Source of the DNA: an uncultured Desulfobacteraceae bacterium
GTDB taxonomy: Bacteria > Desulfobacterota > DSM-4660 > Desulfatiglandales > B25-G16
DNA length: 64,000 nt
NCBI GenBank assembly: GCA_964611035.1
Contig: CAZSWT010000012.1
Location: 89-64,088 of the forward strand
Direction: 5' to 3'
Shown here piece after piece: positions 6,501-45,007 of the stretch. The notes under the pieces are model-generated. The model worked only from the letters and a program-made list of their open reading frames with translations, searched no databases and had not been told where the DNA came from. The translations under genes and the position numbers were made by a program. The first letter of the stretch is position 1. Every line of letters begins with the position of its first letter.

Positions 6501-7056
6501 TTTCTCTCAATCAGGTCATATAAAGGCTATTGGCTATGAACTATATCTAAAAATGATAGAACAGGCAATTGCGGAGCTAAAAGGAGAGGTATGGCAAGAG
6601 GAAATATTTCCTGAGATACATACTGATTTACCAGTTTTTATTCCTCACAGCTATATTGAGGAGAGTGATGTCAGGCTGGATATATACAGACGCTTATCCG
6701 CCATTAAGGGTAAACATGAATTAAAGGAGATGGTACGGGAAATAGAAGATAGGTTTGGACCCTTGCCCAAAGAGGTTGTAAACCTTATCTCTGTTATTAA
6801 GATAAAGATAGGCCTGAAGAAAATTGGCTCAACAGTGTTAGACATTAAAAATGATTATATGATCTTTTCCTTCTCTAAGGATACCCATTTATCACCATCT
6901 GACTTGATTGATTTAGTTTCCAGTCATCCGGATAATTTCTCATTCTTATCCGATCAGAAACTCAAGGTTGTGAGAGAGAAAAAGAGATCCTTTTCTACCC
7001 TTGGAGAGGCAGAGGAGATAGTAAATCAATTTGATCGCTATATCGTAAAAAATTGA
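3562..7056 (+). CDS. mfd: Transcription-repair coupling factor Mfd
   Basis: 1164 aa. Has a CarD-like segment (GDLVVHRDHGIGRYGGL), helicase motifs (GDVGFGKTEV, DEEQRFGV) and a TRCF C-terminal domain. Confidence 0.95.
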   Translation: MSDKRDNLSILKKGIKDKIRLIDVTGLTGSALAYLLSQLLIEVDHPCLMVFPNSEEAGKFYKDLDFFLSNQNNGPSPDLRRIFFFPSYDISPLTGLSPPKELVRQRIEALYALSTLRDAVVVTSLEAIMSRLLPKKILLNSVDYIAINEEIDRDDLIKKLISFGYLRTSLVEERGDFAVRGGVIDLYAPLYDSAVRIEFWGNTVESIRLFNPVNQRSKFDLKELIILPANEIILGPSNITRARSMGRLPSTLESGGNFPGIEAWLHHFYSSLDSIFSYLPKEGHICVTQSDTFIERARPILEKLNNETARFRDECLEKGKPFPQTDNNFLEIQELKVSIAGYQKISFFDFTIKSTFKKEGLAVDFKESVMPDMEYESRDITHPKVSLTPLAVKVKTWIDEGNQIVLVCRTSQQAGRLREILLNYQISVKEIFPDWSRIKRKRGLYICLGYLSQGLRFTASNLIIITEDEIFGEKRGGKRRKKEDRVQAIPWTGFSQLQAGDLVVHRDHGIGRYGGLLKMEISSRIRDFVIIEYAGNDRLYIPADRINIIQKYIGLDEDNPQLDRLGGRSWPLAKKKARRAIEEIAKDLVKIYAMRKLLRGFSFSKADNYYREFEANFDYEETPDQIKVIDDVLSDMESDRPMDRLICGDVGFGKTEVAMRAAFKAIMDGKQVAVLSPTTVLAEQHYQTFSKRFDSYPFRIAVMSRFVSKPEQKKVIGDLSLGKIDIIIGTHRILSDDVVFKDLGLFVIDEEQRFGVKDKEKLKKYRNSVDIIAMTATPIPRTLHMSLMGVRDLSIIKTPPADRLSIQTYVSRFDEDIISHAIEKELERGGQIFFVHNRVQTIEIMADTLSRLVPNARIDIAHGQMKERDLEKAMIKFLARETDVLVCTTIIDSGLDIPSANTIIINKVDRFGLAEIYQLRGRVGRSNVKAYAYLLVSDGSHLTRDAQKRLKVLMDFSCLGSGVNIALNDLRIRGGGNILGFSQSGHIKAIGYELYLKMIEQAIAELKGEVWQEEIFPEIHTDLPVFIPHSYIEESDVRLDIYRRLSAIKGKHELKEMVREIEDRFGPLPKEVVNLISVIKIKIGLKKIGSTVLDIKNDYMIFSFSKDTHLSPSDLIDLVSSHPDNFSFLSDQKLKVVREKKRSFSTLGEAEEIVNQFDRYIVKN

Positions 7057-7127
7057 TCCAAATTCTTCTTGCATTCCCCATAATGATAGTATAATTTAAA
7101 TAAATTATGTCATTTTTTATAAATTTA

Positions 7128-7251
7128 TAGTATAGGAAATCCCATTTTTTAGACAGGATAGACGGGATGTTCAGGATATAAAGAAAATAAGAAAATCTTG
7201 TTAATCGTGGTAATCCTGTCAAAAAAGTTCCGCCGAAGGCGGCTAAGTTCA
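7128..7251 (+). repeat. Structured repeat unit A (R1 family)
   Basis: TAGTATAGGAAATCCCATTTTTTAGACAGGAT...ATCCTGTCAAAAAAGTTCCGCCGAAGGCGGCTAAGTTCA. It appears identical by eye to 45008-45131. Confidence 0.85.
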
Positions 7252-7259
7252 TAGTATAG

Positions 7260-8288
7260 ACTATGATAGATTTTAGGTTGTAAGGAAGTCCCTCAAGGGT
7301 TAATAAACCCGAAGATAAAAATCTTTAAAAAGGAGGAACTTCCTATGGCAATTAAAGTAAAGAGAAGCAAGATTAATTTCAAGGGAAAAATGGTTAACAT
7401 TGGTATCGACATGCATAAAAAATCCTGGCGAATCACTGCCCTTGTTGAAGGGGATATAGTTATGGCTGTAACACTTGCCAGGCCAAACTATGATTCTTTC
7501 AAGAAATTACTGGTTCAGTTTTTAGGCAATTACGTGCGCATAGTTTACGAAGCCGGTCCTGGTGGATTCGACCTATATGACAGGCTTACAGATGATGGCG
7601 TTGAATGCATTGTTACTCCTCCGTCCTTGATCCCCACCGCGAGCGGATCTAAGGTCAAAACAGATAAAAAGGATAGTTACAAGCTGGCCAGGCTGCTTGA
7701 AAGCAATATGCTTAAGCAAGTATGGGTCCTTTCTCCTGAAGAAAGGGCTCACAGGCAGTTGGCAAGGACCAGACGGCAGATAGTTAATCATCGTTCAGAT
7801 GTCATGCGCCAGATCAAGAGCCTGCTCTTGTTTCACAGCATCGAAATCCCTTTCTCAAGTCGCCAGCAGTGGACTGGGCCTTTTACAAAATGGCTTCATG
7901 GGCTCGATCTTGGCGATGAATACCTCAACAAATCACTTGAGGCCTTGATCAAGCTTTTCGATTATCTGAGCATTGAGAAAAAGAGCCTGACCCACGAGGT
8001 CATTAAACTGGCCAGGGAAGAAAAATATGCATCAAGGGTAAAGCTCCTTAAAAGTGTACCTGGTATCGGGGCATTGAGCGCTATGGAGATCCTGGTTGAG
8101 CTTCAGGATATCGCTCGTTTTAAAACAGCCGATGAGCTTGCTGCCTACCTTGGCTTGACACCATCTCAACATTCTAGTGGAGAGCATACCAGAATGGGAC
8201 ATATAACCCATGCAGGCAATGATAGGGTAAGAACCACGCTGGTTGAATCCTCCTGGATCTTGATTGGAAAGGATCCTGAAATAAAAAA
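7260..8288 (+). mobile_element. IS110-family insertion sequence (minimal extent; the right boundary could instead be 8500)
   Basis: The flanks TAGTATAG| and |GAAATCCC rejoin to the sequence seen at the uninterrupted unit junction at 8501-8516. There is no target duplication. The element carries a DEDD-type transposase. Confidence 0.75.
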
Positions 8289-8334
8289 GAAATCCCATTT
8301 TTTAGACAGGATAGACGGGATGTTCAGGATATAA
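7345..8334 (+). CDS. IS110-family (DEDD / Transposase_20) transposase; the C-terminal 14 codons are read from the flanking repeat
   Basis: Motifs NIGIDMHKKSW, YEAGPGGFDLYDRL, KTDKKDSYKLARLL and LKSVPGIGALSAMEILVELQDIARFKTADELAAYLGLTPSQHSSGEH. The tail SHFLDRIDGMFRI* is encoded by repeat-unit sequence. Confidence 0.85.
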   Translation: MAIKVKRSKINFKGKMVNIGIDMHKKSWRITALVEGDIVMAVTLARPNYDSFKKLLVQFLGNYVRIVYEAGPGGFDLYDRLTDDGVECIVTPPSLIPTASGSKVKTDKKDSYKLARLLESNMLKQVWVLSPEERAHRQLARTRRQIVNHRSDVMRQIKSLLLFHSIEIPFSSRQQWTGPFTKWLHGLDLGDEYLNKSLEALIKLFDYLSIEKKSLTHEVIKLAREEKYASRVKLLKSVPGIGALSAMEILVELQDIARFKTADELAAYLGLTPSQHSSGEHTRMGHITHAGNDRVRTTLVESSWILIGKDPEIKKKSHFLDRIDGMFRI

Positions 8335-8500
8335 AGAAAATCTTGTTAATCGTGTTAATCCCTGGCCCAGACCTGATTTATAGGCACAAGTTCCAAAAAT
8401 TAATCTCCTGAAATATTACAGCGACAATAGCTTATTCCAAGCAAGTCGCACCAGGGCGGGCCTGTCAAAAAAGTTCCCCGACATGTCGGGGCTAAGTTCA
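8289..8500 (+). repeat. Structured repeat unit B (R1 family), interrupted by a 101-bp insert
   Basis: Same unit sequence as C, but TAATC|CTGTC is split by 8361-8461. The hairpin variant is CCCCGACATGTCGGGG. Confidence 0.8.
8361..8461 (+). repeat. Nested ~101-bp element inside unit B
   Basis: Absent from units A, C and D. A related copy in opposite orientation lies at about 16914-17018 and shares GCCCGCCCTGG(T/C)GCGAC and AATCAGGTCTGGGCCAGG ends. Confidence 0.6.
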
Positions 8501-8619
8501 TAGTATAGGAAATCCCATTTTTTAGACAGGATAGACGGGATGTTCAGGATATAAAGAAAATCTTGTTAATCGTGTTAATCCTGTCGAAAAAGTTCCCCGA
8601 CATGTCGGGGCTAAGTACA
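8501..8619 (+). repeat. Structured repeat unit C (R1 family)
   Basis: Uninterrupted unit. It lacks the TAAGAAAA duplication of A and D and carries the CCCCGACATGTCGGGG hairpin. Confidence 0.85.
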
Positions 8620-8630
8620 TCGTAACTATT

Positions 8631-19866: not shown

Positions 19867-20118
19867 ATGTCAGTTGTTACTACATCAAGCCGGGGGCAGA
19901 TCGTCATTCCCAGAGATGTGAGAAAGCAGCTTCAAATCGGTCCAGGGAAAAAGGTCCTGATCAGGGCTGAAGGGGATAGGGCAATTCTTTTCCCGCTTCC
20001 TGATGATCCTGTGGATCATTTCTGCGGTATCTTTCAGAAAGGAACATCACTTACAAAGGCACTTTTGGCCGAGCGGGGAAAGGAGCGAGCTCGTGAAGCG
20101 AAAAAGATTACTGGATAG
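19867..20118 (+). CDS. vapB: AbrB/MazE/SpoVT-family antitoxin
   Basis: SRGQIVIPRDVRKQLQI looped-hinge-helix motif. It overlaps the PIN gene. Confidence 0.8.
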   Translation: MSVVTTSSRGQIVIPRDVRKQLQIGPGKKVLIRAEGDRAILFPLPDDPVDHFCGIFQKGTSLTKALLAERGKERAREAKKITG

Positions 20119-20503
20119 CTTTGCCATGATTGTTTATTTGAATAAAGAGAAGGGTTTTGAAAAGGTACGTGATGTAATGTCTGAGGCTCAGAAATCGGGT
20201 GACCATGTTTTGATGAATGAGATAAATGTGGGGGAAGTCTATTATATTCTTTTCAGAAAAAGGGGGCCAGAAAAAGCTGACTACTTCATAGAGACAATAC
20301 TTGCATCACTACCGATTCTTACAGTCTCGAATGGTTTTGATGATGTGATTAATGCTGCAAAAATTAAGGCAGAGCATCCTCTCTCCTTTGCCGATTGTTT
20401 TGCTGTTGATACGGCCCGCAAATATAATGCCGTTATCATGACAGGGGATCCGGAATTCAAAAAGATAGATCAGCTTGTTGAAATAGAATGGCTCGATAGA
20501 TAA
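20093..20503 (+). CDS. vapC: PIN-domain toxin VapC
   Basis: A GTG start at 20093 gives VKRKRLLDSFAMIVYL (conserved Asp near the N-terminus). FADCFAVDTA and MTGDPEF are typical PIN acidic positions. Confidence 0.8.
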   Translation: MKRKRLLDSFAMIVYLNKEKGFEKVRDVMSEAQKSGDHVLMNEINVGEVYYILFRKRGPEKADYFIETILASLPILTVSNGFDDVINAAKIKAEHPLSFADCFAVDTARKYNAVIMTGDPEFKKIDQLVEIEWLDR

Positions 20504-21061: not shown

Positions 21062-21334
21062 ATGGAACAAATCGGGATAAGAGACAAAGCGTTGCCAATA
21101 TTGAAATCTTCTATAGCTTTAAAAGAGAAGCTACTAAAAGCAAAATCGAAGAGCTACCGCAAGCGTCTAAAAATATTTGAAAAAAAACATAAAATGAAGT
21201 CTGAGCACTTCATAAAAGAGTTTAACGCCGGTAAGCTTGGTGACGATGCAGAATGGTTTGATTGGCTCTTTGTATATGAAGCATACAACAGAGTAACAGA
21301 GCAGGAAAAAATAATAGAAGGGCTTTCACTGTGA
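21062..21334 (+). CDS. Small coiled-coil protein, probable antitoxin partner of the DUF6516-like gene
   Basis: ATG at 21062 with GGGAGG upstream. It overlaps the next gene by 4 nt (GTGA). The longer track ORF (from 20843) translates repeat sequence. Confidence 0.5.
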   Translation: MEQIGIRDKALPILKSSIALKEKLLKAKSKSYRKRLKIFEKKHKMKSEHFIKEFNAGKLGDDAEWFDWLFVYEAYNRVTEQEKIIEGLSL

Positions 21335-21708
21335 CCATTCGCTATTTTGAAAAGGTCAAAAAGAGAATAGCTAAATTGGAGTGGTTAATAGAACGGAAAA
21401 GTATTGATACTGAGTATGACGAAGACGCTGATGTTGGTTACATTGGAGGGTATATAAACTTCAAGGATGGTTCCATATTTCATTTCAAAGAAATTCTATT
21501 TGGACAGAACAGGCATTATAGATTTCACTATATGGATGAGAAACACAATCTAATATCCAGATGGGATACTGCGCCGCATCACAAGAAATTGAAAACTTTT
21601 CCTTATCATGTCCATTTACCTGATGGTGTGAAAGAATGTAAACCGGTTACACTTAATGGTGTCCTTGATAGGATAGAAAGCATTGTCATTGATAGATTAG
21701 AGGAGTGA
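21331..21708 (+). CDS. DUF6516 / TumE-like toxin-family protein
   Basis: RWDTAPHHKKLKTFPYHVH matches the RWDNAPHH...FPHH.H signature as I remember it for this family. Confidence 0.5.
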   Translation: MTIRYFEKVKKRIAKLEWLIERKSIDTEYDEDADVGYIGGYINFKDGSIFHFKEILFGQNRHYRFHYMDEKHNLISRWDTAPHHKKLKTFPYHVHLPDGVKECKPVTLNGVLDRIESIVIDRLEE

Positions 21709-23907: not shown

Positions 23908-24594
23908 GTGATGTCGGAATTTAAAAGGTGTAAAGGACTTAATCAAAAAGGTAAGAGATGTGGAGCGCAGGCTGTTAAAGGATCTGAATACTGTGTTGCT
24001 CACCAAGACCAAGCCCCTAAATCCCATATTAAGACTCCATTCTATAAAGATATTAAGTTTTTAATCCCAATAATTATAACCATATTTTTAGCCATTTATT
24101 TTGGGAGTAAAAGTGCTACAAAAAAAGGACAACAAATTACACACCAAGATCAAAATAAAACTCACAAAACATTAGATCGTATGGAAAAGAACATAAACAA
24201 AATTATCGATAACCACTCAAAAGCCTCTCAAGAATATTTAGAAGAAAAATACGGCTCTCTTCCAACTTTCTTTGGTGCAACGGATAAAGGTGCAATAGTT
24301 CCCTATGGTGGTAATCCGGCGGGTATAAATATCGATTGGAAATCTGCTTTAGTGTTAAATGTAACGCATAATGAAATAAAAATACAAATTCCAGACATAT
24401 CAATAAATACGGATAAGATTAAAGGATTGACATTCGTAAATATAAAATTTGTAATGATAAAAAAAGTCGGTTATACGATAGCACCCATCGGCGACAGAAG
24501 ATTTGAAATTAGGGCTACTGTTGTTGGAGTAGATCAAGGAATAACAGTGATTGGTTTATCAGTTGTTTTAAAATCTGGTTCTTCTCCAAATTAG
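23908..24594 (+). CDS. Hypothetical membrane-anchored protein with an N-terminal Cys/His cluster
   Basis: CKGLNQKGKRCGAQAVKGSEYCVAH, then one TM segment. The last 5 codons plus the stop are supplied by the MITE insertion. Confidence 0.45.
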   Translation: MMSEFKRCKGLNQKGKRCGAQAVKGSEYCVAHQDQAPKSHIKTPFYKDIKFLIPIIITIFLAIYFGSKSATKKGQQITHQDQNKTHKTLDRMEKNINKIIDNHSKASQEYLEEKYGSLPTFFGATDKGAIVPYGGNPAGINIDWKSALVLNVTHNEIKIQIPDISINTDKIKGLTFVNIKFVMIKKVGYTIAPIGDRRFEIRATVVGVDQGITVIGLSVVLKSGSSPN

Positions 24595-24863
24595 TTGGTA
24601 GAAAAATGATTTACCAAAATACAACATATTGAAATTAAATGTAATTTCACCATTAACCTTTTTGATTAATTAGGCCATATTGTTAGGTGATAATGTTACT
24701 CCAGAAATTAAGTATTAACAGGAAATTACTTTTATAGGCAACTGCTATGATGAGCCTGGTAGGTACCCATTATCGGAGTTGCTTTTAAAAGCTATACCTA
24801 CTGAAATCATTAATCAAATAAGATTTAAGCCTTAATCTTGACCAACTAATTTGGAGAAGATCC
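24577..24863 (+). mobile_element. 287-bp MITE, copy 1
   Basis: 23-nt terminal inverted repeats (TIRs) GG(T/A)TCTTCTCCAAATTAGTTGGT. Flanked by direct TAAAATCT (24569-24576 and 24864-24871). Confidence 0.85.
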
Positions 24864-24931
24864 TAAAATCTTAATTTAAATAATAATCCAATCTGCTATT
24901 TATCATCAAAAAAGTACCTTTTCCAAATTAC

Positions 24932-25009
24932 AGATAACTCCAACGTATTCGTAAAGTTAAAAGCGATTAAAACCTGTGATATCTAAACTCCCCGTTTGGA
25001 ATGTTACGG
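24932..25009 (+). other. attC-like site
   Basis: AGATAAC-TCCAACG...CCGTTTGGAAT-GTTACGG. About 65-70% similar to 26542-26618. Confidence 0.5.
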
Positions 25010-25209
25010 TTGCATGTATCTGCTATCTTTGGCAGGGTTTCAGCACGTTATAATGCTGCGATATCGAAACCGTATCGGAAAAACGTTAGCAATCCCAATA
25101 TGATGAGCTCATGGCAAGATATGTGGAAAACGAGTCGCTAGCCTCGAAAAATCTTGAACAGTACCCTTTCCGTTCCTAATAATAGACTGTGAAGTTCTTA
25201 CACATGCGG

Positions 25210-25215
25210 TATAAT
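25210..25215 (+). promoter_or_regulatory. Possible -10 box (TATAAT) upstream of the HEPN-like gene
   Basis: A perfect TATAAT lies 35 nt upstream of the ATG at 25250. No convincing -35. Confidence 0.3.
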
Positions 25216-25249
25216 AGTTCCATTTCGATCAAATAAAGGACCCAGGTTA

Positions 25250-26404
25250 ATGAAGGCTCAGAAGAATGAAACTTTCTTGTATGAGGTCTCTTTTTATGTA
25301 AATACGGCACATTATCTGCCAGTCTTGTGGAAACATGATCCTCTTTCTTTCCAGTGGGCGAAATTATCTGTCATTCCTTTGAAGAAATGTAGCAATCATG
25401 ATGATGAAGGTAAGGAAGGATTCGATGATGCGATCAAGACCAGCTACACCATTCCAGCCGAATCAATCAACGAAGCAATCTCTAAATCGCTAATGGTGAA
25501 CAGGTTCATCTTGAATATTGCTTCATTTTACTATTCAATTGGGTTAAACATAAAATCGCCTCCGTGCATTACTGAGTTGGATACCGGTAAAGGAGTAGTT
25601 TATGATTTCCGCCGTCTTACTTTTTCGAAAGATAACTTCTGCACAAAGATCGTCGATACATATTTCCCCTTTCTTACAGATGGGGGGGAAGGGAGCCTTA
25701 AGTTCAAATTAGATCAAATATCGTCTTATGAATATAATGAGCTTTTTGAAATTGACGATTTTCATAAAACGATCAAGACTTTTCTGGCGCTCTACAATGC
25801 TTACATTAAGGACTCAGCATTAAGAAAAAAAATAGATTTCTCACTCAATATTTTGAATGAGTCTCAGCAAATTCCGGGATTTGTATCGAGGTTTATCTTG
25901 TACTGGAGGGCCTTTCAGCAACTCGTTGAACGACCCGTTCCAACTGGTATCGTCAATGAAAAAAGTCTTCAAGAGATCATCTCGATTCTGAAGAAGCAAG
26001 AAGCCCCAAGATTATCTCAAAAAGAAATATCAAGAATCAGGGATCAGATACGTATAATTCATTCTAGGTCGAGGGCCGATCTAATAGTCGATGAGATGAG
26101 AAGTTATTTCACAGAATCTGAACAGGAACTTAGAGACATCTATACCAAGCTGGCAGAAACTCGAAATAAACTCATTCACGGTGGATACAAAGGAGAAGAA
26201 ATCCCCAATTTGTGGTTTGATACAGAGTTACTTAAATCGATTGTTCGCCAGATGGTTGGCGTGCACGTCGGTTACAAAAAAAGTGAATTGAAGATGCCAA
26301 GCCTCAAGGATTTTCGTGTAAGGTCAGCTCCGAAACCTGTAATACATATTGGTATTGGTAAGCCGGATGAGGATATTGCGAGCAAATCTCGGATTAGGAA
26401 GTGA
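25250..26404 (+). CDS. Hypothetical protein with a C-terminal HEPN-like Rx4H motif
   Basis: LAETRNKLIHGGY (R-N-K-L-I-H) sits in a helical C-terminal half. The N-terminal ~190 aa are unassigned. Confidence 0.45.
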   Translation: MKAQKNETFLYEVSFYVNTAHYLPVLWKHDPLSFQWAKLSVIPLKKCSNHDDEGKEGFDDAIKTSYTIPAESINEAISKSLMVNRFILNIASFYYSIGLNIKSPPCITELDTGKGVVYDFRRLTFSKDNFCTKIVDTYFPFLTDGGEGSLKFKLDQISSYEYNELFEIDDFHKTIKTFLALYNAYIKDSALRKKIDFSLNILNESQQIPGFVSRFILYWRAFQQLVERPVPTGIVNEKSLQEIISILKKQEAPRLSQKEISRIRDQIRIIHSRSRADLIVDEMRSYFTESEQELRDIYTKLAETRNKLIHGGYKGEEIPNLWFDTELLKSIVRQMVGVHVGYKKSELKMPSLKDFRVRSAPKPVIHIGIGKPDEDIASKSRIRK

Positions 26405-26541
26405 AACGATTCCAAGCACACCCATTCTTTGCCTAGTGTTATAATTCAGTGGAAGTGATAAATTAGGTCGCTGATCTCCATTGTTATCTCACTTTGAGAT
26501 ATCTGTTATCCACCACAGGTTTATCCCAGTTCTAAAACCTG

Positions 26542-26618
26542 AGCTATCTCCAACATATCTGAAAAATTTATAGGTCATCAAAACCTGTGCTAACCAAACT
26601 TCATTCGGAAGGTTACAG
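26542..26618 (+). other. attC-like site (degenerate 5' box)
   Basis: AGCTATC-TCCAAC...TTCGGAAG-GTTACAG. Direct-repeat partner of 24932-25009. Confidence 0.4.
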
Positions 26619-26857
26619 TTTACTGCTATAAATAGAAAGTCTCTCGCAAGTTTCCTGGCTTTTTATTACTATACGTAACATGGATAGGAGGGGTGCATAG
26701 TACTAACTGAAGTAAACCCCGATTCATAGCATATTTCAATCGTAATTCATTCAAAACAGTGGGTCGAAGATCCGCAAAAAAAATTGTAAGTTAACCTTAA
26801 AGTTCCTATCCTGAAATAGTACGATCAAATTTCAGTTGTTACACCTTAACGATATAT

Positions 26858-28825
26858 TTAGATACCCAAGTCTTTTTTAGCGGACTCCAATTGATCCTGA
26901 GCGAATTCCCATCGTGCTATCAATTCTTTTACCTTTTCTCTGATTTCACTATATTCATTCAAGAATGATGGGCTTTTATCTTTATCTGCGAAAACCGCTG
27001 GGTCTGAAAGAATTGTTTCCAGTTCTTTTTGCCTTTTTTCCGAATCAGAAATCCTCTCTTCTAATACAAGCAGTTTCTCCTGAATGGGTTTAAGAGTTTC
27101 CCTGATCAACTGGCGTTTTTCTGCCGCTTCTTTTTTCTGTGCCTTTCGAGATTTTTTATCTCCACTGGGTACTATTTGACTTTGTTTCTTATCTGAGTCT
27201 TCAGGTGAAGTCTTGGCAATTCTTTCCAGATGATCATAATATTCATTGAGATTGCCAGGGTATTCTTCAATTTCTTCACCTTGTATATCCCAGATCTTTG
27301 TTGCTAATCTGTTTACAAATGATTGGTTATGGGAAACAAATAATAATGTGCCTTTGTAATCAGTTAGGGAATCTATTAAAATTTCTGATGATATAAGATC
27401 AAGGTGATTTGTTGGTTCATCCATCAACATAAGGTTTCCGGGTTTTACAAGCAATTTCGCAAGCGATACCCTTGCCTTTTCTCCACCTGAAAGGATGCCT
27501 ATTGACTTGTCTACATCGTCACCTGAAAAGAGAAAAGCCCCACACACAGTCCTTGCAAACCCTATTGTTTCATTGGGGGTAGCCAGGCTCACTTCCTCAA
27601 CTATTGTCTTTTTAGGGTTAAGCATATCGGTGTGATGCTGGGCAAAGTAAGCCATGGTTACCTTGTGGCCCAGTGTTATCTCACCACGATCAGGTGGAAT
27701 CTCTCCTGCTATCATCCTGAGTAAAGTTGTTTTACCAGCACCGTTTGGCCCTATAATGGCTATCCTTTCACCCCTTAGTACACTGAGGTTGATGTTAGTA
27801 TAAACGATTTTATTATTAAAACCTTTTGAAACCCCTTTGATTATTACCACATCTCTCCCACTCCTAAGAATAGCAGGAAAAGAGAAATGGATGGTCTTTT
27901 GAGGACGGTAGGATTCAACGAGTTCCATTTTTTTGATTAATTTAATTTTACTTTGCGCTTGTCTCGCTTTTGAGGCCTTCGATCGGAATCTTTCAATAAA
28001 CCTCTCGGCTTCTTTTATTTTTTGTTCCTGGTTTCTGGCCTGCCGCAGACGGATCGATTTTTCTTCTTCTCTGGCTTTTAGATAAAAATCATAATTTCCG
28101 CTGTAGGTTTTCAAACCCTCTGGTTCAAAACTTATGATGCGATTTATTTGCTTATTTAAAAAATCCTTGTCATGGGATACAAGAATTATAGCGCCTTTAT
28201 ATGTTTGAAGGAATTGATCCAACCAGTGTACAGACGGGATATCAAGATGATTGGTCGGTTCATCCAGCAAGAGGAGATCAGGCGTCTGATAAAGAAGACT
28301 CCCTAATACTGTTCTCATTCTCCATCCTTCGCTCAGGGAGGAAGCGGGAATGTCAAAATCCTCGGATCGAAAACCTAAACCTGCAAGGATTTTTTCGGCC
28401 TCATGCGAAGGGAATTGCCTGTCCAGATAACTTATCTCTTGGTGGAGCTCTGCAAGCTTCCCTGCCAGTTTTAGTTGGCTGTCTTTGTTCTGGATATTTT
28501 TCAATGATTCTTCTGTCCGCATTATCTCATCTCTAAACCTCACCCTTCCTGGTATGGAATCCAGAATAGATTGGAGTATCCTGCCGGATAATGCAGTATG
28601 GACATCCTGGGGAAGGTATCCTATCCGTATTCCTTTTCTTTTCTTAATCTCTCCAGTGTCAGGAGAAATTTCGCCACCTATCAGTCTCAACAATGTTGTT
28701 TTACCTGATCCATTTGGGCCTACAAGGCCAATCCTGTCTCCAGACTCGACCTGAAGTCCTATTTCATGGAAAAGATTTTTTCCTAAAAAGGTGATGGAAA
28801 GGTTAGAGATGATTACAAGGCTCAT
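26858..28825 (-). CDS. ABC-F family ATPase (two ABC domains, C-terminal coiled coil)
   Basis: Two Walker A motifs (GPNGSGKTT, GPNGAGKTT), two LSGG signatures and no TM domain. Confidence 0.9.
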   Translation of the reverse strand: MSLVIISNLSITFLGKNLFHEIGLQVESGDRIGLVGPNGSGKTTLLRLIGGEISPDTGEIKKRKGIRIGYLPQDVHTALSGRILQSILDSIPGRVRFRDEIMRTEESLKNIQNKDSQLKLAGKLAELHQEISYLDRQFPSHEAEKILAGLGFRSEDFDIPASSLSEGWRMRTVLGSLLYQTPDLLLLDEPTNHLDIPSVHWLDQFLQTYKGAIILVSHDKDFLNKQINRIISFEPEGLKTYSGNYDFYLKAREEEKSIRLRQARNQEQKIKEAERFIERFRSKASKARQAQSKIKLIKKMELVESYRPQKTIHFSFPAILRSGRDVVIIKGVSKGFNNKIVYTNINLSVLRGERIAIIGPNGAGKTTLLRMIAGEIPPDRGEITLGHKVTMAYFAQHHTDMLNPKKTIVEEVSLATPNETIGFARTVCGAFLFSGDDVDKSIGILSGGEKARVSLAKLLVKPGNLMLMDEPTNHLDLISSEILIDSLTDYKGTLLFVSHNQSFVNRLATKIWDIQGEEIEEYPGNLNEYYDHLERIAKTSPEDSDKKQSQIVPSGDKKSRKAQKKEAAEKRQLIRETLKPIQEKLLVLEERISDSEKRQKELETILSDPAVFADKDKSPSFLNEYSEIREKVKELIARWEFAQDQLESAKKDLGI

Positions 28826-28908
28826 GAGAGATATCCGTTTCCGGGTTTGTTGAGTTTATTGTGTTTGTTGGGTTAATAACAAATGAAGACTGACAAATGA
28901 CAATATTC

Positions 28909-30357
28909 CTACTTCCGCCAGTATGCAGGGGCAAGCATAATGATAACGGTGTATATCTCAAGACGTCCGAGAATCATGCAGAAGATCAGAACCCATTTTC
29001 CCAGATCAGGAACAGGCAGATAATTGTTTACTGGTCCAACCAGACCAAATCCTGGTCCGACATTGCCTATCGTAGCAGCTACTGAGGCGAATGATGTCGG
29101 AATATCCAGCCCGATTAAGGACATAATTATTACAGCCACAATAAAAAGACCAAGATAAAGAATAAAAAATCCCCAAATGCTGTTCAATACCTCTGCTGGA
29201 ACCGGCTTGCCACCGAGCTTGATGGATCTTACAGCATGGGGATGGATAAGTCTAAAAATCTCTTGATAGCCATGTTTAGCAAGCAATATAATCCTCATAA
29301 TCTTTATTGCTCCACCAGTAGATCCTGCCATTGCCCCAATAAACATGCATAATACGATAATAATTTGCGATAGGGCTGGCCACGTTGCATAATTGGCCGT
29401 TACAAAACCAGTTGTTGTGATTATGGATGTAACCTGAAAGGCAGCGCGCCTTAATGCATGGCTGAGGGAATTATAGATAGTCCCATAGATATTAAAGGTT
29501 ACCAAACATATCAGAATAGCAAGGATAAGAAGAAAGACACGACACTCTGGATCCTTGCCAAACACCTTAAAATCTCCCTTTAAAAATTTAAAGTGGAGGG
29601 AAAAATTTATTCCAGCCAGGATCATAAAAAAGGTAATAACACCATCAAAATAGGCACTGTTATACTGAGCAATACTCGCATTCTGGGTACTAAATCCTCC
29701 GGTTGGCATGGTACAAAAGGCGTGACAGATAGAATCAAAAAGAGGCATTCCGCCGATAAGTAAAAGGCCTATCTCAAGTAGGGTGATAAATAGATACACT
29801 TTCCATAGGGTTTTAGCCGTCTCTGAGATGCGAGGTTGTAATTTATCCACTACCGGGCTTGGAATCTCAGCTTTATAAAGTTGCATCCCTCCCACTCCTA
29901 AAAAAGGGAGAATAGCAATAGAGAGCACAATAATTCCCATCCCTCCCATCCACTGGGTTTGGCTCCTCCAGAATAATATTCCCTTAGGAAGAGATTCAAT
30001 GTTGGCAAGAATAGAGGCTCCAGTAGTGGTAAAACCAGATATGGATTCAAAATAGGCATTTGTTAGGGTGCTAATTGAGCCGGAAAATAAAAAAGGCAAA
30101 GAGCCAAAAAAACCGGCAGTTAACCAACCAAAAGTAACAATTGCCATACCCTCTCTTTGGCTTAGAGAGAGATAATTAATTTTCCCGATAAGAAAAAAAA
30201 GGGTAATGCCAGTGCCTGATGTGATAATGAAGGAATAGAGTAGAGGAAAGAAGCTTCCATCGGAATAGATGAGGGAGATGGTGAGAGGCACAAGCATGGA
30301 AAGACCGAGGAAAAAATTAAGGATTCCGATCAGTCGGAAGATCTGACGAAAACGCAT
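28909..30357 (-). CDS. trkH: Trk-type potassium uptake protein TrkH
   Basis: Polytopic membrane protein with repeated GFTTTGA/ITTTGF pore-loop-like motifs. Translationally coupled to trkA. Confidence 0.9.
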   Translation of the reverse strand: MRFRQIFRLIGILNFFLGLSMLVPLTISLIYSDGSFFPLLYSFIITSGTGITLFFLIGKINYLSLSQREGMAIVTFGWLTAGFFGSLPFLFSGSISTLTNAYFESISGFTTTGASILANIESLPKGILFWRSQTQWMGGMGIIVLSIAILPFLGVGGMQLYKAEIPSPVVDKLQPRISETAKTLWKVYLFITLLEIGLLLIGGMPLFDSICHAFCTMPTGGFSTQNASIAQYNSAYFDGVITFFMILAGINFSLHFKFLKGDFKVFGKDPECRVFLLILAILICLVTFNIYGTIYNSLSHALRRAAFQVTSIITTTGFVTANYATWPALSQIIIVLCMFIGAMAGSTGGAIKIMRIILLAKHGYQEIFRLIHPHAVRSIKLGGKPVPAEVLNSIWGFFILYLGLFIVAVIIMSLIGLDIPTSFASVAATIGNVGPGFGLVGPVNNYLPVPDLGKWVLIFCMILGRLEIYTVIIMLAPAYWRK

Positions 30358-35370: not shown

Positions 35371-35806
35371 TTATTACTCCCTTTTCTTGATGAAGTCGTT
35401 AAATCGTTGAGTTATTAAATTGTTTACCCCTCAACAACAGACTGCGGACAATAGCCAACTGATATCCTATGCCCAAATCTTTTTAGGTTTTTAACATAAT
35501 TAACTTTTTTTTGCCATATCAATTTAGGCATATCTTTTAAAGAGTTGAATTTTGCAAAATTTTTAAATCCTTGCCAAGTTTTTTATTTGACTTTATTATA
35601 TTTAATTGGATTAGATTAAGGCCTTGCTATTTTTTTAAGGATTTAGATTTCTGATGATCTTCAATAATTTTTTGCGGTGGCAACCTTGTTCCCCTTGGTG
35701 GACAAAATATATTGGAAGCGGCTGTATGGTGTAAGGCGGTTATTTATGGCCCCTTAATGGAGGATTTCTTAGAAGCCAAGGCATTATTAGTTCACCCAGA
35801 GGGATG

Positions 35807-35883
35807 TATATCCGAACATGGTTCGTATATACGCCTAAATTGGAAGGATATCAGAACCTATTTCGGATATAAACGAGTTATAT
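35807..35883 (+). other. Degenerate attC-like site at the head of the cassette array
   Basis: TATATCCGAA...TTCGGATATA stem followed by AACGA-GTTATAT. The 5' AAC box is missing. Confidence 0.35.
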
Positions 35884-35907
35884 GAAATAGCCCTAAGGTG
35901 AGATAAA

Positions 35908-36378
35908 ATGCTTCCAGATTTACTAAAGAGAAATTTGCGCGTTGTGATTTGTGGAACTGCTGTCGCTAATTATTCTGCAAAAGTGGGTTCATATTATGCG
36001 GGTGCCGGCAATAAATTTTGGCGAGTCCTTTTCGAGGTTGGATTAACACCCGTTATGCTGAACTCGAAAGATTATCAGAAACTGCTTAAATACGGGATCG
36101 GACTTACAGATCTGGCTAAAAATAAAGCTGGTCCCGATAGTAAGATTCCCTCTCATGCTTTCGATATTGAAAGATTCAAGAAAAAGATACAGGATTGTCG
36201 CCCGAAGGTAGTTTGTTTCAACGGCAAGAAAGCCGCTAAAATTTATCTGCGTAAAAAATATGTTGAATTTGGGTTACAGAAAGAACAGATCGAAAGTACC
36301 CATCTTTTTGTTGCACCGTCCACGTCAAGGGCGGCAAACCGCTGGTGGGATCAAAAATGGTGGCAAGAGATTTTATAA
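35908..36378 (+). CDS. mug: G/U mismatch-specific uracil-DNA glycosylase (Mug, UDG family 2)
   Basis: LRVVICGTAV...GNKFWRVLFEVGLTP parallels the E. coli Mug N-terminus as I recall it. Confidence 0.7.
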   Translation: MLPDLLKRNLRVVICGTAVANYSAKVGSYYAGAGNKFWRVLFEVGLTPVMLNSKDYQKLLKYGIGLTDLAKNKAGPDSKIPSHAFDIERFKKKIQDCRPKVVCFNGKKAAKIYLRKKYVEFGLQKEQIESTHLFVAPSTSRAANRWWDQKWWQEIL

Positions 36379-36398
36379 AGAAATGAATGGGCTACTTC

Positions 36399-36487
36399 AT
36401 ATAACACAGCATAAAAGGTTCGTGCCTTACGGCACTCACCTAAATTTTTGCTTCGCAAAAACTTCTTCGATGCTGGGAACGTTATAC
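36399..36487 (+). other. attC-like site 1
   Basis: ATATAAC-ACAGCAT...ATGCTGGGAAC-GTTATAC with two internal hairpins (GTGCC/GGCAC and TTTTTGC/GCAAAAA). Confidence 0.6.
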
Positions 36488-36516
36488 GACATAAAAATAA
36501 TTTACAGGACAAAAAG

Positions 36517-37128
36517 ATGGACGAACTAGAAGAAACGTATTCAAAACTTACCGATAATGAACTCTTGATTATGGTATACTTTGAGAGTTCAGACTATAAT
36601 GAAGAAGCGATTAAAATTGCTAAGTCAATTTTGGATAAGAGAGGATTAGGTCAACCATCAGATGAAATTTTGCAGCAGGCTAAAAACTATCATAGTCAGC
36701 TGAAGGAATCGCAAAAAGATCAATTTGCAGAAAAAATCCAATCCCGTGATGTGTTTAGATTTGGAAAATTAAAACAGGCATTTAAAGAAAAAAATTATTA
36801 TTTTATTGGTAAATTGTCGTTTTGGTTTGTAATCGGTTATGGTCTTTACTCTGGTTTAAGTATTGGCAGTGGCAGGGGAAAGTGGATTGAACTAATTCCC
36901 TTTGCAGAAACAATTAAATCAGAATGGCTATTTATCCTAGAAGTAGTTTTCAATATTGCCATCCTTGGAATATTTCCTATTATCTTTTTCATTATATATA
37001 GCCTGAAACTTTCGCAAGAACAGAGAAAAGAGCGGAGATTATCTTTGCTTATGCCGAAATATATCTTTTTCATTTATGGAATTTCGTTGTTTCTTTTTTT
37101 TGTTCTTGTTATTTTGCCAAGATTGTGA
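36517..37128 (+). CDS. Hypothetical membrane protein (cassette gene)
   Basis: I prefer the ATG at 36517, because the track start at 36448 lies inside the attC-like site. Soluble N-terminus plus 3-4 TM segments. Confidence 0.5.
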   Translation: MDELEETYSKLTDNELLIMVYFESSDYNEEAIKIAKSILDKRGLGQPSDEILQQAKNYHSQLKESQKDQFAEKIQSRDVFRFGKLKQAFKEKNYYFIGKLSFWFVIGYGLYSGLSIGSGRGKWIELIPFAETIKSEWLFILEVVFNIAILGIFPIIFFIIYSLKLSQEQRKERRLSLLMPKYIFFIYGISLFLFFVLVILPRL

Positions 37129-37138
37129 TTTTTACGTC

Positions 37139-37218
37139 GCCTAACAGCGGATAAAAGGGAAATCAAAGATTTCCCAAAATTGCCTTCGGCAATTTCTTTT
37201 ATCCGCAAAACGTTATAT
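37139..37218 (+). other. attC-like site 2
   Basis: GCCTAAC-AGCGGATAAAAG...CTTTTATCCGC-AAAAC-GTTATAT with internal hairpins GGGAAATC/GATTTCCC and AAATTGCC/GGCAATTT. Confidence 0.65.
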
Positions 37219-37251
37219 GAAATTGCTGTTAATTAAGGGAAAGGAGATATT

Positions 37252-37797
37252 ATGAACAAAAAATCTTTTTATCCATTGTTAGTAACTGGATTGGCCATCT
37301 TAGGAATGCTTACAGGGAGCTGTAGTAAAGCTCCAAATCCTAATCCAGCACCAAAGAAACCGAGTACTATGACAATTTCTGAAGGGAAAATTACCATAGA
37401 GATAAAGGCAGAAGGAGGGACTTTATATTACTTTGAGAAAAAAAGATGGGCTGCGAATGAATCCCCAGAGCTAAAAGAAAAAGATAAATTTAGATCTAAC
37501 CAAATTGAAAAATTTAAGGCAACCTATCGGGTAAATGCTGCCAATTTTAATGTAGAGATTGATAAAGAGGAAAAAACAACTGACTTGAAATGTAATATTT
37601 ATGTTAAATTTGATACCTGGTATGACTTTCACTGGTTTCTGAGGCCTCTTGGCCTTGATTTTATAGATAATCATTTTGAAAGAAGAGAAAAAGAGTTATC
37701 ATGGAAAGGGTGTTTGGATGGGGTTAAGACGACTATTCTGCTTAAATTTCCATTTAGGATTAATAATTGTCATGCACATGTCTGGCCAGCGAGATAA
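37252..37797 (+). CDS. Hypothetical lipoprotein (cassette gene)
   Basis: Signal peptide ending LTGSC. No family recognised. Confidence 0.5.
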   Translation: MNKKSFYPLLVTGLAILGMLTGSCSKAPNPNPAPKKPSTMTISEGKITIEIKAEGGTLYYFEKKRWAANESPELKEKDKFRSNQIEKFKATYRVNAANFNVEIDKEEKTTDLKCNIYVKFDTWYDFHWFLRPLGLDFIDNHFERREKELSWKGCLDGVKTTILLKFPFRINNCHAHVWPAR

Positions 37798-37799
37798 AA

Positions 37800-38030
37800 A
37801 TGATAGTAGTAAAATGTGCTCAATGCAAAGGGAAAATCTTCAAATATCAAAAGATTGGGAAAGGTCGATTATGGCACTGCTGGAAGGAGCGAATAATCGA
37901 GGATTATAGTATTAGAGATGGAAATAAAGTTAAATGCCAATGCGGTAATCTAATTGGTATTGTTGAAGGAAAATGGATTAAGATGAGGCAGCATTCTTTT
38001 ACCCACTCAGGGGCAATAACAAAAAAATAG
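37800..38030 (+). CDS. Small zinc-ribbon-like protein (76 aa)
   Basis: CAQC...CQC pairs. The ATG at 37800 lies just downstream of the lipoprotein stop. Confidence 0.4.
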   Translation: MIVVKCAQCKGKIFKYQKIGKGRLWHCWKERIIEDYSIRDGNKVKCQCGNLIGIVEGKWIKMRQHSFTHSGAITKK

Positions 38031-38039
38031 GAGGTAAAA

Positions 38040-38678
38040 ATGAAGGTCACTATTGTTTATGACAACACTGTTTACCAAAGAGGCCTCAAATCCGATTGGG
38101 GCTTTTCTTGCCTTGTAGAAGTAGAGAAGACGCCGAGAATTCTTTTTGACACGGGGACAAATGGTTCTATACTTCTTTCAAATATGCAAAAACTTAATAT
38201 CGATCCTACTTCTATCGATGAAGTTTTCATTTCCCACCCCCATTTTGATCACATTGGTGGACTTTCTGATTTCCTCCAGGTGAACAGGGAAGTCAAGATT
38301 TATATCCCCACTTCCTGTCCCAAGCCTTCTGGAGCAAAGGAGGTAGTTAGCATTGGACAGCCCCTTCAAATCCACGAAAATATCTCCTCTACTGGCGAGC
38401 TCGATGGTATAGAACAGAGCATGGCGGTCAAAATGGATAAGGGAATAGTAATGGTCGTAGGATGCTCCCACCCAAAAATGGAGCATATTCTACAGGCAGC
38501 TTCTCAATTTGGTAAAGTTTATGGTATTATAGGAGGATTGCATGGAAATAGGCCTGAATCCTTGAAGGACTTGGATTTGATTTGTGCGACCCATTGTACT
38601 CAATATAAGTCAGAGATAAAGTCTCTCTATCCGGAGAAATATATTGAAGGTGGAGCAGGAAGAGTAATTGAAATTTAA
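38040..38678 (+). CDS. MBL-fold metallo-hydrolase (COG1237-like)
   Basis: HPHFDHIGG metal motif. GGAGG upstream of the ATG. Confidence 0.8.
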   Translation: MKVTIVYDNTVYQRGLKSDWGFSCLVEVEKTPRILFDTGTNGSILLSNMQKLNIDPTSIDEVFISHPHFDHIGGLSDFLQVNREVKIYIPTSCPKPSGAKEVVSIGQPLQIHENISSTGELDGIEQSMAVKMDKGIVMVVGCSHPKMEHILQAASQFGKVYGIIGGLHGNRPESLKDLDLICATHCTQYKSEIKSLYPEKYIEGGAGRVIEI

Positions 38679-38679
38679 T

Positions 38680-39510
38680 ATGAATCTCAAAATCTTAATT
38701 TTAATCGGAATCTTAATTTTGACAGGGACAGGAATTTGTTTTTAAATTCAAGCTGAAAAAGCAACTTCGCCAGAAATTTCTATTGAATCAGAAAAAGAAG
38801 AAAAACCAGAAATAACCTTAATTTCGGTTTATGATAACTGCCAGGTAGATCCCGATCTGAAAACTGCATGGGGTTTTGGATGCGTGATAAAAACCCCTAA
38901 AGAACTAATATTGTTTGATACCGGGGGAAATTCAAAGATTTTGCTTTTCAATATGGAGAAGATGAATATCAATCCCAAATCAATTAATAAAGTAATTATT
39001 TCTCATATTCATGGAGATCGTGTGGGGGGATTAGAAGGATTTTTAGAGAAAAATAGTAATGTTACCGTCTTTATTCCAAGTTTCCTTCCTAATTCCTTTA
39101 GAGATATGATAACCAGTCAAGGAGCTGAATTTGTAGATGTTTCAGTCCCTAGAAAAATTTCTGATTTTATTTATACCACTGGAGAACTTTATGGACCTCC
39201 AAAAGAGCAATCTCTAATTATAGATTCAAAAAAGGGCTTAATAGTTATTACTGGGTGTGCTCATCCTGGAGTTGTAAATATTGTTAAAAAAGCCAAAGAA
39301 TTGATGAAAAAAGATAATGTATATCTTGTTATAGGGGGTTTTCATCATCCTCCTATAGCTGTAGTTAAAAAGTTTAGAGAACTTGGAGTAAAAAAAGTTG
39401 CACCATCTCATTGCACAGGTGATTTAGTTAGAGAGGCATTTAGAGAAGAATATAAAGAAGATTTTATAGAATACGGAGTAGGAAAAACAATTGAGATTAA
39501 AAATAATTAA
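38680..39510 (+). pseudogene. Secreted MBL-fold paralog interrupted by an in-frame TAA (38743-38745)
   Basis: ATG at 38680 gives the signal peptide MNLKILILIGILILTGTGICF, then TAA. The same frame continues IQAEK...ITLISVYDNCQVDPDLKTAWGFGCVIKTP, homologous to the N-terminus of 38040-38678 and upstream of the track's GTG at 38884. Confidence 0.6.
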
Positions 39511-39542
39511 AATGTGTTTAATATATCTTCGTTCGCACTATC

Positions 39543-39630
39543 GCCTAACAGCGGATATGAAGTTTCAGCCTTCGGCTTTCGCCCAAATACTCTCTACGCT
39601 CGGCCTTCTCATATCCGCGAACCGTTAATT
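39543..39630 (+). other. attC-like site 3
   Basis: GCCTAAC-AGCGGATATGAAG...CTTCTCATATCCGC-GAACC-GTTAATT. Same class as site 2. Confidence 0.65.
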
Positions 39631-39656
39631 GAAATGGAAGCAAAAGCAGGACAGCG

Positions 39657-40661
39657 ATGATGAACATAGATTTCATTATGACTAGGACGAAAATTTGGTG
39701 GGACGCTGCAAGGTGGTTGGCACTCCCACAATCAGCAATGGCCTGCGCCGTTGGCGGGCTCATTGCCTTCTACCATGGCAAGTTTGATCCGCTACTGTTT
39801 CTGGTCACATTCGCTGGCCTGGTGGCAGTTCATCTCGGCACGAATCTGCTGGATGACTACGCTGACTTAAAAATTGGTGGTTTTTCCATTCGAAATAAGG
39901 TTCAGCAGGCAGGCGATACTGTGCGCACTGAAAAGGCACCTTATGTCATCAACGGCACCATCAAGCTCGATCACGTACTCTACGTTTCATTAGGGCTTTT
40001 CGCACTCGGCCTGCTAGCTGGCGCTTATCTCACGGCAATATCTGGCTGGCCAGTTGCAGCTATAGCTGCCGCTGGAGCGTTCTTTTGCTTTTTCTACTCT
40101 ATGCCACCCGTAAAACTATGCTACCGCGGCATGGGAGAAGTGGCCGTAGCCTTCTCATTCGCGATGACATGTGTGGGCACTTACTACGCCGTGGCACAAA
40201 GCTTTAGTTGGGAGCCGGTTTTCATCTCGGTGCCTATCGGCATCATGGTTGGCCTGATCCTTTACGTCCATTCCATAATGGATTTTAAGCCCGACCTTGC
40301 GGTCAAAAAAAGAACCCTGGTTATGGTCCTTGGTAATCAGCAAAAGGCCATACGGTTACTGCCGCTGGCATTTGTAATAGCTTATGGTTCCATTATTGGC
40401 GGCATAGCGATGGATATCTTGCCGCTCACTACCCTTTTGACACTCCTAAGCATTCCTATGGCAATTAAGCTTGCGCAGCTTATGCGCCGGATAGGACAGG
40501 GTGATTATGAGGTCAAGCGGACTTGGTGGATGGGGCCCATGGAGAGCGGTTTAGTGGAAATAGGACAGTGGTTTATGGTTCGATGGTATCTGGCACGCAA
40601 CCTGATGGTAGCCACTACCCTGCTAATATTTGCTGCGTATATTATAGCGTTAGTCTTTTAG
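39657..40661 (+). CDS. UbiA-family (MenA-like) aromatic prenyltransferase
   Basis: 8-9 TM segments and the Asp-rich NLLDDYADLK motif. Confidence 0.8.
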   Translation: MMNIDFIMTRTKIWWDAARWLALPQSAMACAVGGLIAFYHGKFDPLLFLVTFAGLVAVHLGTNLLDDYADLKIGGFSIRNKVQQAGDTVRTEKAPYVINGTIKLDHVLYVSLGLFALGLLAGAYLTAISGWPVAAIAAAGAFFCFFYSMPPVKLCYRGMGEVAVAFSFAMTCVGTYYAVAQSFSWEPVFISVPIGIMVGLILYVHSIMDFKPDLAVKKRTLVMVLGNQQKAIRLLPLAFVIAYGSIIGGIAMDILPLTTLLTLLSIPMAIKLAQLMRRIGQGDYEVKRTWWMGPMESGLVEIGQWFMVRWYLARNLMVATTLLIFAAYIIALVF

Positions 40662-40673
40662 TGAGGAGGCCAC

Positions 40674-41588
40674 ATGTTTGAGTTAGCGCACTATGCAGCA
40701 TGGTATGCCAAGTGTCGTTTATTGGGTAAAAGGTTACCAATCCAGTCGGTTGTTTTCATCACCACACGCTGCAACTTGAAATGCAAGCACTGTATATTTG
40801 CTAAGGGCGTGGCTGAAGGCACACTTAAGGCAGAGGATTTTACCTTTTCACATGTTATGGACTTACTGAGGCAATGCTATGACGCCGGCTCACGGATGGT
40901 CACCTTTGAGGGTGGTGAGCCACTTCTCTGGCAGGATGAAGGCCTTTACTTAGAGGATCTGGTCAAAAAAGCCAATAAAATAGGCTTCCTGTCCACTAGC
41001 TACAGTACCAATGGCACTTTCCCCATTCCCAACAGCAGCGCTGACCGTATCTTTGTGAGCCTGGATGGAACGAAAGAGTTCCATGATGAAATACGGGGGG
41101 CAGGAACGTTTGACCAGGTCATGCAGAATATAGTGGAGTCTTCCTACCCTCACATCAGCGTCAATATGGTTGTGAATAATATCAATTGGAAATGTGTCCC
41201 AGATTTGATACACCTTGTAGCTGAAACGAGGAATATCAAAAGCATTTCGATCAATTTTCACACCCCTCACGTGGGGGTGGAGGATTTTTTTCTGCCCTGG
41301 GATAAACGTAAACTGGTGCTTGACCAGGTGATCAAGCTTAAGAAAGAGGGCTATACCATTGCTAACTCGCTAGAAGGTCTGAAACGCATGTACGATAACA
41401 GGTTTACCAAACGCTGTTGGATAACTAACTTTGTCTTACCTGATGGAAAACTCCACCCCCAATGTCCGGGTGCTGAAGAAGGAATCTGTGATAGGTGTGG
41501 CTATGGCATGGGTGCCGAGATGTCGGCTCTATATGATCTTGCGCCGTCTACTATTATAGAGGGGCTAAAACTGTTCTCAAAGCATTGA
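40674..41588 (+). CDS. Radical SAM enzyme, function unknown
   Basis: TTRCNLKCKHC (CxxxCxxC), a C-terminal Cys cluster CPGAEEGICDRCGYG, and GGAGG upstream of the ATG. Confidence 0.8.
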   Translation: MFELAHYAAWYAKCRLLGKRLPIQSVVFITTRCNLKCKHCIFAKGVAEGTLKAEDFTFSHVMDLLRQCYDAGSRMVTFEGGEPLLWQDEGLYLEDLVKKANKIGFLSTSYSTNGTFPIPNSSADRIFVSLDGTKEFHDEIRGAGTFDQVMQNIVESSYPHISVNMVVNNINWKCVPDLIHLVAETRNIKSISINFHTPHVGVEDFFLPWDKRKLVLDQVIKLKKEGYTIANSLEGLKRMYDNRFTKRCWITNFVLPDGKLHPQCPGAEEGICDRCGYGMGAEMSALYDLAPSTIIEGLKLFSKH

Positions 41589-41628
41589 ATAATTAACCTT
41601 TTGAAGCATGAACTCTATCTTGCACTTC

Positions 41629-44320: not shown

Positions 44321-44373
44321 TAATTCTTAATCCATCTCATTCCATGACTATGAGTGCTCCGGTCAACAATTTT

Positions 44374-44959: not shown

Positions 44960-45007
44960 GCCTACTGTCAGAACGGGTATATGTGTGCCCTGTCTCTGCT
45001 AACTTGA

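Follow-up and report, generated by a model that had tools for sequence, protein, structure and literature searches.

A 287-bp MITE with ISL3-type termini at two gene ends of an uncultured Desulfobacteraceae bacterium

The 287-bp element and its two insertion sites

The stretch of DNA analysed here, 64,000 nucleotides long and called the window throughout, contains two copies of a 287-bp element, one on the + strand at positions 24577–24863 (copy 1, whose left end starts with GGTTC...) and one on the – strand at 44374–44660 (copy 2), inverted relative to copy 1. Window 24577–24863 and the reverse complement of 44374–44660 match at 287 of 287 bases. Each copy is bounded by terminal inverted repeats of 23 nt. 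In copy 1 the left repeat (24577–24599, + strand) reads GGTTCTTCTCCAAATTAGTTGGT and the right one (24841–24863) reads GGATCTTCTCCAAATTAGTTGGT on the – strand; in copy 2 the GGATC end lies at 44374–44396 (+ strand) and the GGTTC end at 44638–44660 (– strand). The two repeat sequences are complementary at 22 of 23 positions, and the window contains the 23-nt terminus motif four times, whereas 100 shuffles contained none. An earlier note on this DNA, which had described a 287-bp repeat present twice, inverted and identical, and ending in 23-nt inverted repeats, thus had the anatomy right. The G+C content of the element is 30.7%, compared with 41% for the window, and its six-frame translation gives short open stretches only and no long ORF. 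The view that the element is non-autonomous holds, as its 287 bp include no transposase ORF, and so does the statement that the window is devoid of a transposase: a tblastn search with an ISL3 transposase gave a best E-value of 2.4. Consensus scans for sigma-70 promoters and intrinsic terminators found none within either MITE copy, and a search of plasmid and phage collections (blastn 'distant') returned no match to the element.

Both copies are flanked by perfect 8-bp target-site duplications. Those of copy 1 (24569–24576 and 24864–24871) read TAAAATCT, and the native stop TAA of the interrupted gene follows directly after the right one, while those of copy 2 (44366–44373 and 44661–44668) read ACAATTTT. 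Flanks of the local base composition would match at 8/8 positions with a probability of about 3e-5 per site, and in an empirical count such a match at the spacing of the element was seen at 4 of 63,697 window positions. As had been noticed before, the two duplications are separate, being different as well as perfect, and since each copy has its own, the reading of the pair as two independent insertions is retained.

Copy 1 lies at the end of a gene for a zinc-finger/TM protein (ORF 23908, positions 23908–24594, + strand), exactly between its last sense codon and its stop. The native end ...VVLKS-TAA has become ...VVLKS-GSSPN-TAG, so that the last 18 nt of the frame are MITE sequence and the TAG that now ends it is held by the left terminal inverted repeat. 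The exchange of the stop had been read from the sequence alone; it is now backed by a homolog (P0003, 52% identical) ending ...AVTKP, which confirms the native end because its last residue is aligned with that of ...VVLKS. The exact chimeric protein (P0001) was found on 17 contigs. No allele with the native tail was found in the protein collection, where P0001 is alone in its 90% cluster. Directly downstream of copy 1 is a 384-aa ORF (25250–26404) with a weak, sub-threshold Pfam match to an Apea-like HEPN domain (E = 5.8e-4). Toxin-antitoxin-type genes are abundant nearby, with MazE/PIN at 19867–20503, TumE at 21331–21708 and Phd/PIN at 45971–46593.

Copy 2 had been said to supply the ATG and the first 17 codons of an ORF at 44610–44882 (+ strand). 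This is true of the chimeric frame of 90 amino acids (P0004), the remainder of which makes up the body of a small, conserved membrane protein, and incomplete, as the insertion also interrupts the 5′ end of the conserved gene. Removal of the element and one duplication at this site gives an uninterrupted frame, stop-L-stop-VLRSTILNFILIGIF..., and the only distant homolog, P0005 on contig L105 (56% identity), reads ...PRVLRSTIFNILLIGLF... / VLRSTIFNILLIG across the insertion point. Because P0005 reads through, copy 2 is placed six codons inside a conserved small membrane-protein gene, whose GTG start it has cut off. The severed start (44354–44452, + strand) consists of the GTG and five codons (VLRSTI) and now opens a junk ORF of 32 aa that continues into the MITE. 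The MITE ATG is the one chosen by gene callers, and P0004 was found on 14 contigs. Since no Shine-Dalgarno-like sequence lies ahead of the MITE ATG of ORF 44610, expression of P0004 is uncertain.

The window also contains a second, unrelated repeat family of about 130–140 nt, with copies just downstream of genes at 7111–7251, 8264–8376, 8484–8624 and 44991–45131, one of them 330 nt from MITE copy 2. These copies have an internal inverted repeat (GACAGGAT...ATCCTGTC) and a terminal GC hairpin that varies compensatorily between copies (CCGCCGAAGGCGG vs CCCCGACATGTCGGGG). The family has no match in Rfam, and among the fetched loci its core was present only in contigs of the same population. A strain-variable island is located between yebC and kpsF (35790–41623), in the region that the earlier note called a cassette array. 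In the window it spans 5.8 kb with UDG, two MBL-fold genes (Anti-Pycsar Apyc1 Pfam matches), UbiA and radical SAM genes, compared with about 1.6 kb, containing a methyltransferase and small ORFs, in one metagenome strain (L102, 2789–4373).

Shared termini and the assignment to ISL3

The exact 22-nt terminus was used to scan one genome per GTDB species, which resulted in 88 loci. Most of them are in Desulfobacterota MAGs (Desulfatiglandales, Desulfobacterales, Syntrophaceae and Syntrophorhabdus), and a few are in MAGs of Halanaerobiales, Poribacteria, Thermodesulfovibrio, Nitrospira, Nitrospinaceae and Pirellulales. The loci form three classes, namely the 287-bp element, full-length ISL3 elements and other short elements. 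In the second class, a 1353-bp element (L052, 259–1611) bounded by the same 22-nt termini has an ORF of 424 aa matching Pfam DDE_Tnp_ISL3 (6.6e-69), HTH_Tnp_ISL3 and Zn_ribbon_ISL3, as well as NCBIfam NF033550 'ISL3 family transposase' (4.1e-97, above cut-off). Two further loci, L068 and L073, are adjoining pieces of one 220-kb contig; when joined they give a copy of 1351 bp with perfect 24-nt terminal inverted repeats, an open ISL3 frame of 417 codons and the 8-bp duplication AAACATTT. The ORFs of both elements score above cut-off with Pfam PF01610, PF13542 and PF14690 and with NCBIfam NF033550, and the right repeat of the full-length elements contains the transposase stop codon.

The outer 22 nt of the termini are identical between the MITE, L052 and the L068/L073 copy. 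Judged by its termini, the element, to which no family name had been given before, is a member of the ISL3 family. We consider it very likely that it is a MITE of this insertion-sequence family, that its two copies in the window are independent insertions, and that the transposase came from elsewhere. Autonomous elements with the same terminal repeats do exist in other MAGs (L052 and L068/L073), while no autonomous ISL3 partner is found within the 64-kb window and every exact-terminus match in the closest MAGs is a MITE end. In a search for a partner in the same samples through transposase homologs, the one abundant, multi-contig relative looked up (P0022) proved to be from other samples and to have diverged termini. 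The transposase subgroup is very large in metagenomes (2161 cluster representatives at E ≤ 1e-100), and its members are less than 42% identical to the ISL3 transposases on sequenced plasmids. An origin of the MITE by internal deletion of a parent IS is not borne out by the comparison: the ISL3 similarity ends about 22–31 nt from each MITE end, and none of the 88 loci holds a parent IS with similarity beyond the terminal repeats. Such a derivation is not needed for an element to be a MITE.

The same 287-bp element, 98.5–100% identical, is located at the ends of many contigs in MAGs of Desulfatiglandales and Desulfobacterales. At least ten contig ends in the MAG DATKWM01 carry it, as do further MAGs and six metagenome contigs, and most often the contig ends are cut at k-1 bases, as is typical of a multi-copy repeat in short-read assemblies. 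Pairing of contig ends via their flanking 8-mers allowed three insertions to be rebuilt in DATKWM01 (ACAAATAA, AAATTTGT and ACTTTTTT), and two further complete copies from metagenomes have the duplications ACAAATTA and AATTTTAA. With TAAAATCT and ACAATTTT from the window, perfect 8-bp duplications are present at no fewer than seven MITE sites, which establishes the element as multi-copy beyond the window. All of the duplications are AT-rich, those of the seven MITE sites as well as that of the one autonomous ISL3 copy. A MITE end and the flank ACAAATAATTTGAT are common to L045, from the Desulfatiglandales MAG DATKWM01, and L022 (DATKTE010000320.1), from a MAG labelled Alphaproteobacteria; the latter, 2.2-kb 'alphaproteobacterial' contig is probably mis-binned.

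In a relative (L074, MAG CSMAG_1069), the MITE (2717–2812) adjoins the 3′ end of abcF, at a place corresponding to window position 26839, which is empty in the window. The flank of this locus is 93.6% identical to window 26839–29554, whereas the MITE part is identical at 96 of 96 positions (P = 0.0017). The contig ends inside the element, and the arrangement goes back either to an insertion independent of those in the window or to a deletion next to the MITE that removed the region of the HEPN-like gene (24864–26838). The MITE family as a whole is young and mobile, all copies being at least 98.5% alike and the MITE part of L074 lying above the identity of its flank.

The 22-nt terminus is also carried by unrelated MITE families of 146–379 bp, mostly from Desulfobacterota MAGs, the interiors of which are unrelated. 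Perfect 8-bp duplications were seen in the MITE-like families at L009, L037, L042, L043, L049, L069 and L081. There are at least seven such other MITE-like families with the 22-nt ISL3 terminus, some of them in MAGs labelled Halanaerobiales and Nitrospinaceae. At L019, two MITE-like copies of 162 bp (6586–6747 and 7481–7642) are 895 bp apart.

An 8-bp duplication by itself does not identify ISL3, as IS1595, IS66, IS256 and IS6 also make 8-bp duplications. The element could on this ground come from another such family, or it could be a non-mobile structured repeat, considering that the predicted fold of the whole element is far better than that of shuffled sequences (z = -6.1 and -5.7). Membership in another family is difficult to reconcile with termini in which 22 nt agree exactly with those of elements encoding an ISL3 transposase. 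As for a structured repeat, the interior without the terminal repeats gives z = -2.3 and -1.6 only, so the excess folding energy is mostly due to pairing of the terminal repeats; Rfam has no match either for the whole window at the gathering score or for the element even at E ≤ 1, and the sites with distinct perfect duplications (seven or more) also argue against it. We regard this pair of alternatives as very improbable. The modest interior values likewise leave the idea of a cargo RNA inside the element unsupported.

Identity of the two copies, recombination and assembly

Look-ups of the exact proteins led, at each of the two sites, to independent contigs, which come from one Logan run and 14 JGI metagenome samples. 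Both insertions, at the same sites and with the same duplications, are present in 16/16 contigs among the matches listed; the recovered contigs are 99.1–100% identical to the window, with some strains having flanks that are 99.1–99.2% identical. No empty site was found for either insertion, and for site 2 an exact 32-mer of the empty site had 0 matches in the JGI metagenome contigs. Since no pair of filled and empty alleles was found, the case for transposition at both sites is made from the duplications and the homologs.

The two copies are not identical in the independent assemblies, where 2 of their 287 positions differ. Site 1 has C118 (in nine contigs) and A183, and site 2 has A183 and A187 (in five contigs), whereas the window has the variant T118/G183/G187 at both sites. 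A scan for the G183 variant gave six contigs, none of them at site 1 or 2, so that at these sites G183 is seen in the window only. One of the contigs, L094, is the same as the window over 3776 bp save for two positions, both of which are inside the MITE (P about 0.006).

These observations bear on the age of the insertions, which the earlier note had called probably recent on account of the identity of the copies. It could be that the two copies are truly identical because very recently one served as the template of the other, or a single master served as that of both, and the 287/287 identity in the window as well as the youth of a family in which every copy is at least 98.5% alike would fit this. 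The same insertions and duplications are, however, found in every independent assembly examined, including the strains with 99.1–99.2% identical flanks, and there the copies bear site-specific differences (C118 at site 1, A187 at site 2, and A183 at both), while L094 departs from the window at two MITE positions alone. A very recent copying event is therefore unlikely, and the earlier dating is not upheld: because the copies differ at two positions in independent assemblies, their identity in the window is no sign of recent transposition. It looks like the outcome of gene conversion in that strain or of repeat collapse by the assembler (a single graph path), and L094 together with the site-specific variants points to the same two sources, concerted evolution by gene conversion or de Bruijn-graph repeat collapse.

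The effect of repeats on assembly raises the question of whether the pair could be an artefact altogether, produced by a chimeric join or a duplicated contig end rather than by two real insertions. Many short-read assemblies are indeed broken by the element at exactly k-1 bases, and one contig (L108) unites the flanks of two different copies. At the two sites in the window, by contrast, each copy has the same 8 bp duplicated to its left and right, which shows the joins to be correct, and all of copy 1 is spanned by four contigs (L089, L090, L091 and L094) and all of copy 2 by two (L099 and L100), each of the six coming from a different sample and being collinear with the window. An artefact is thus extremely improbable, and the two copies are best taken as two real insertions.

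The same six contigs are relevant to the suggestion that the pair is a substrate for inversion of the segment between the copies. Inverted repeats of 287 bp are long enough for homologous recombination, and the suggestion is sound in principle. Taken further, the pair could act as a switch, with RecA-mediated inversion of 24.9–44.4 kb in the population. Events at other loci of the family could be read in this direction. One MITE locus is without target duplication in three assemblies of the same metagenomes (L106, L107 and L110; JGI contigs Ga0315538_1004305, Ga0307439_1020224 and Ga0315533_1000187), and L108 (Ga0307438_1000461) has the left flank of L109 (Ga0315549_1001374) and the right flank of L110, each 100% identical. 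Either MITE copies have recombined here, or the assembly joined the flanks chimerically at the repeat. For the segment in the window, both orientations would be expected in the population, and all six spanning contigs (6/6) have the arrangement of the window, although consensus assemblies would hide a minority orientation. The flank swap may be a chimera, and we find a switch of this kind improbable.

Probable mobilisation, related elements and significance

In ISL3 DDE transposons, a transposase acting in trans binds the terminal repeats, the target is cut with an 8-bp stagger, and repair duplicates it. The arrangement in the window very probably arose along these lines. A full-length ISL3 element elsewhere would make the DDE transposase, the element itself having no coding capacity. 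The transposase would bind the terminal inverted repeats of about 23 nt and excise or copy the 287-bp unit, which would be inserted at an AT-rich target via an 8-bp staggered cut, the repair of which would lead to the 8-bp duplication. Two separate insertions took place in an ancestor of the sampled population. One of them came to lie directly after the final amino-acid codon of ORF 23908, ahead of its stop, and added GSSPN, and the other, six codons into the small membrane-protein gene, removed the GTG start and offered an in-frame MITE ATG. From the common termini we infer that the MITE can be mobilised in trans; the presence of an ISL3 partner in this genome, as well as any expression of the chimeric ORFs, is putative.

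An ISL3-type MITE is already known from Microcystis aeruginosa PCC 7806, in which an element of 187 nt, with repeats of the ISL3 type and duplications of 8 nt, is described and attributed to ISL3-family transposases, ISL3 elements being reported with an 8-nt duplication (PMC11448079). The element described here is similarly short and non-coding, with terminal repeats that match ISL3 elements (GGCTCTTCG... in Microcystis, where these elements are resident, and GGTTCTTCTCC... here), and it shares with the Microcystis MITE the 8-nt duplications, a stem-loop, the location in or next to genes and the presence in multiple copies across related genomes. The two are unrelated in sequence and differ in length (287 nt here, 187 nt in Microcystis) and in their repeats (23 nt here, 9 conserved nt there); the host here belongs to sediment Desulfobacterota, and the partner IS was found in other MAGs only. 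The element forms a new family by its sequence, and its host group, too, is new for such MITEs. With autonomous ISL3 elements (ISfinder family ISL3; L052 and L068/L073, 1351–1353 bp) it has in common the identical outer 22 nt and an AT-rich 8-bp duplication; what sets it apart from them is the lack of a transposase gene and an interior of unrelated sequence.

The consequences for genes can be compared with those of other bacterial MITEs, such as the Rickettsia palindromic elements, Correia and ERIC/BOX, for which in-frame fusions to ORFs are well known (PMC10969869). The present case is alike in that a small palindromic mobile repeat is fused in frame with host ORFs and would change protein termini. 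The Rickettsia palindromic, Correia and ERIC/BOX elements go back to IS lineages that are different or unknown, their duplications differ as well, and the fusions here are short in comparison, with a tail of 5 aa and a possible (predicted) head of 17 aa.

A more far-reaching proposal, which we put forward as speculative and think unlikely, is that the 22-nt ISL3 terminus acts as a portable handle by which unrelated DNA has been captured again and again, giving rise to the many MITE families of 146–379 bp in Desulfobacterota and at least four other phyla. In this population the copies would evolve in concert and recombine, as the common G183, the copy without target duplication and the flank-swapped contigs might suggest, and fixed insertions at gene ends would be kept with the MITE tail and start codon in use.

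The current understanding of transposition is not challenged by these results, the value of which lies mostly in annotation and assembly. For annotation, they show how gene calls arise that begin or end with codons of transposon sequence. For assembly, this 287-bp repeat causes breaks in many places when sediment Desulfobacterota are assembled from short reads, and since assemblers can homogenise such a repeat, 'identical copies' in a MAG are no proof of recent transposition. For the ISL3 family, the element would be the second documented case of ISL3-driven MITEs, and it shows the wide distribution, among anaerobic sediment bacteria, of one ISL3 subgroup whose terminus is very conserved.
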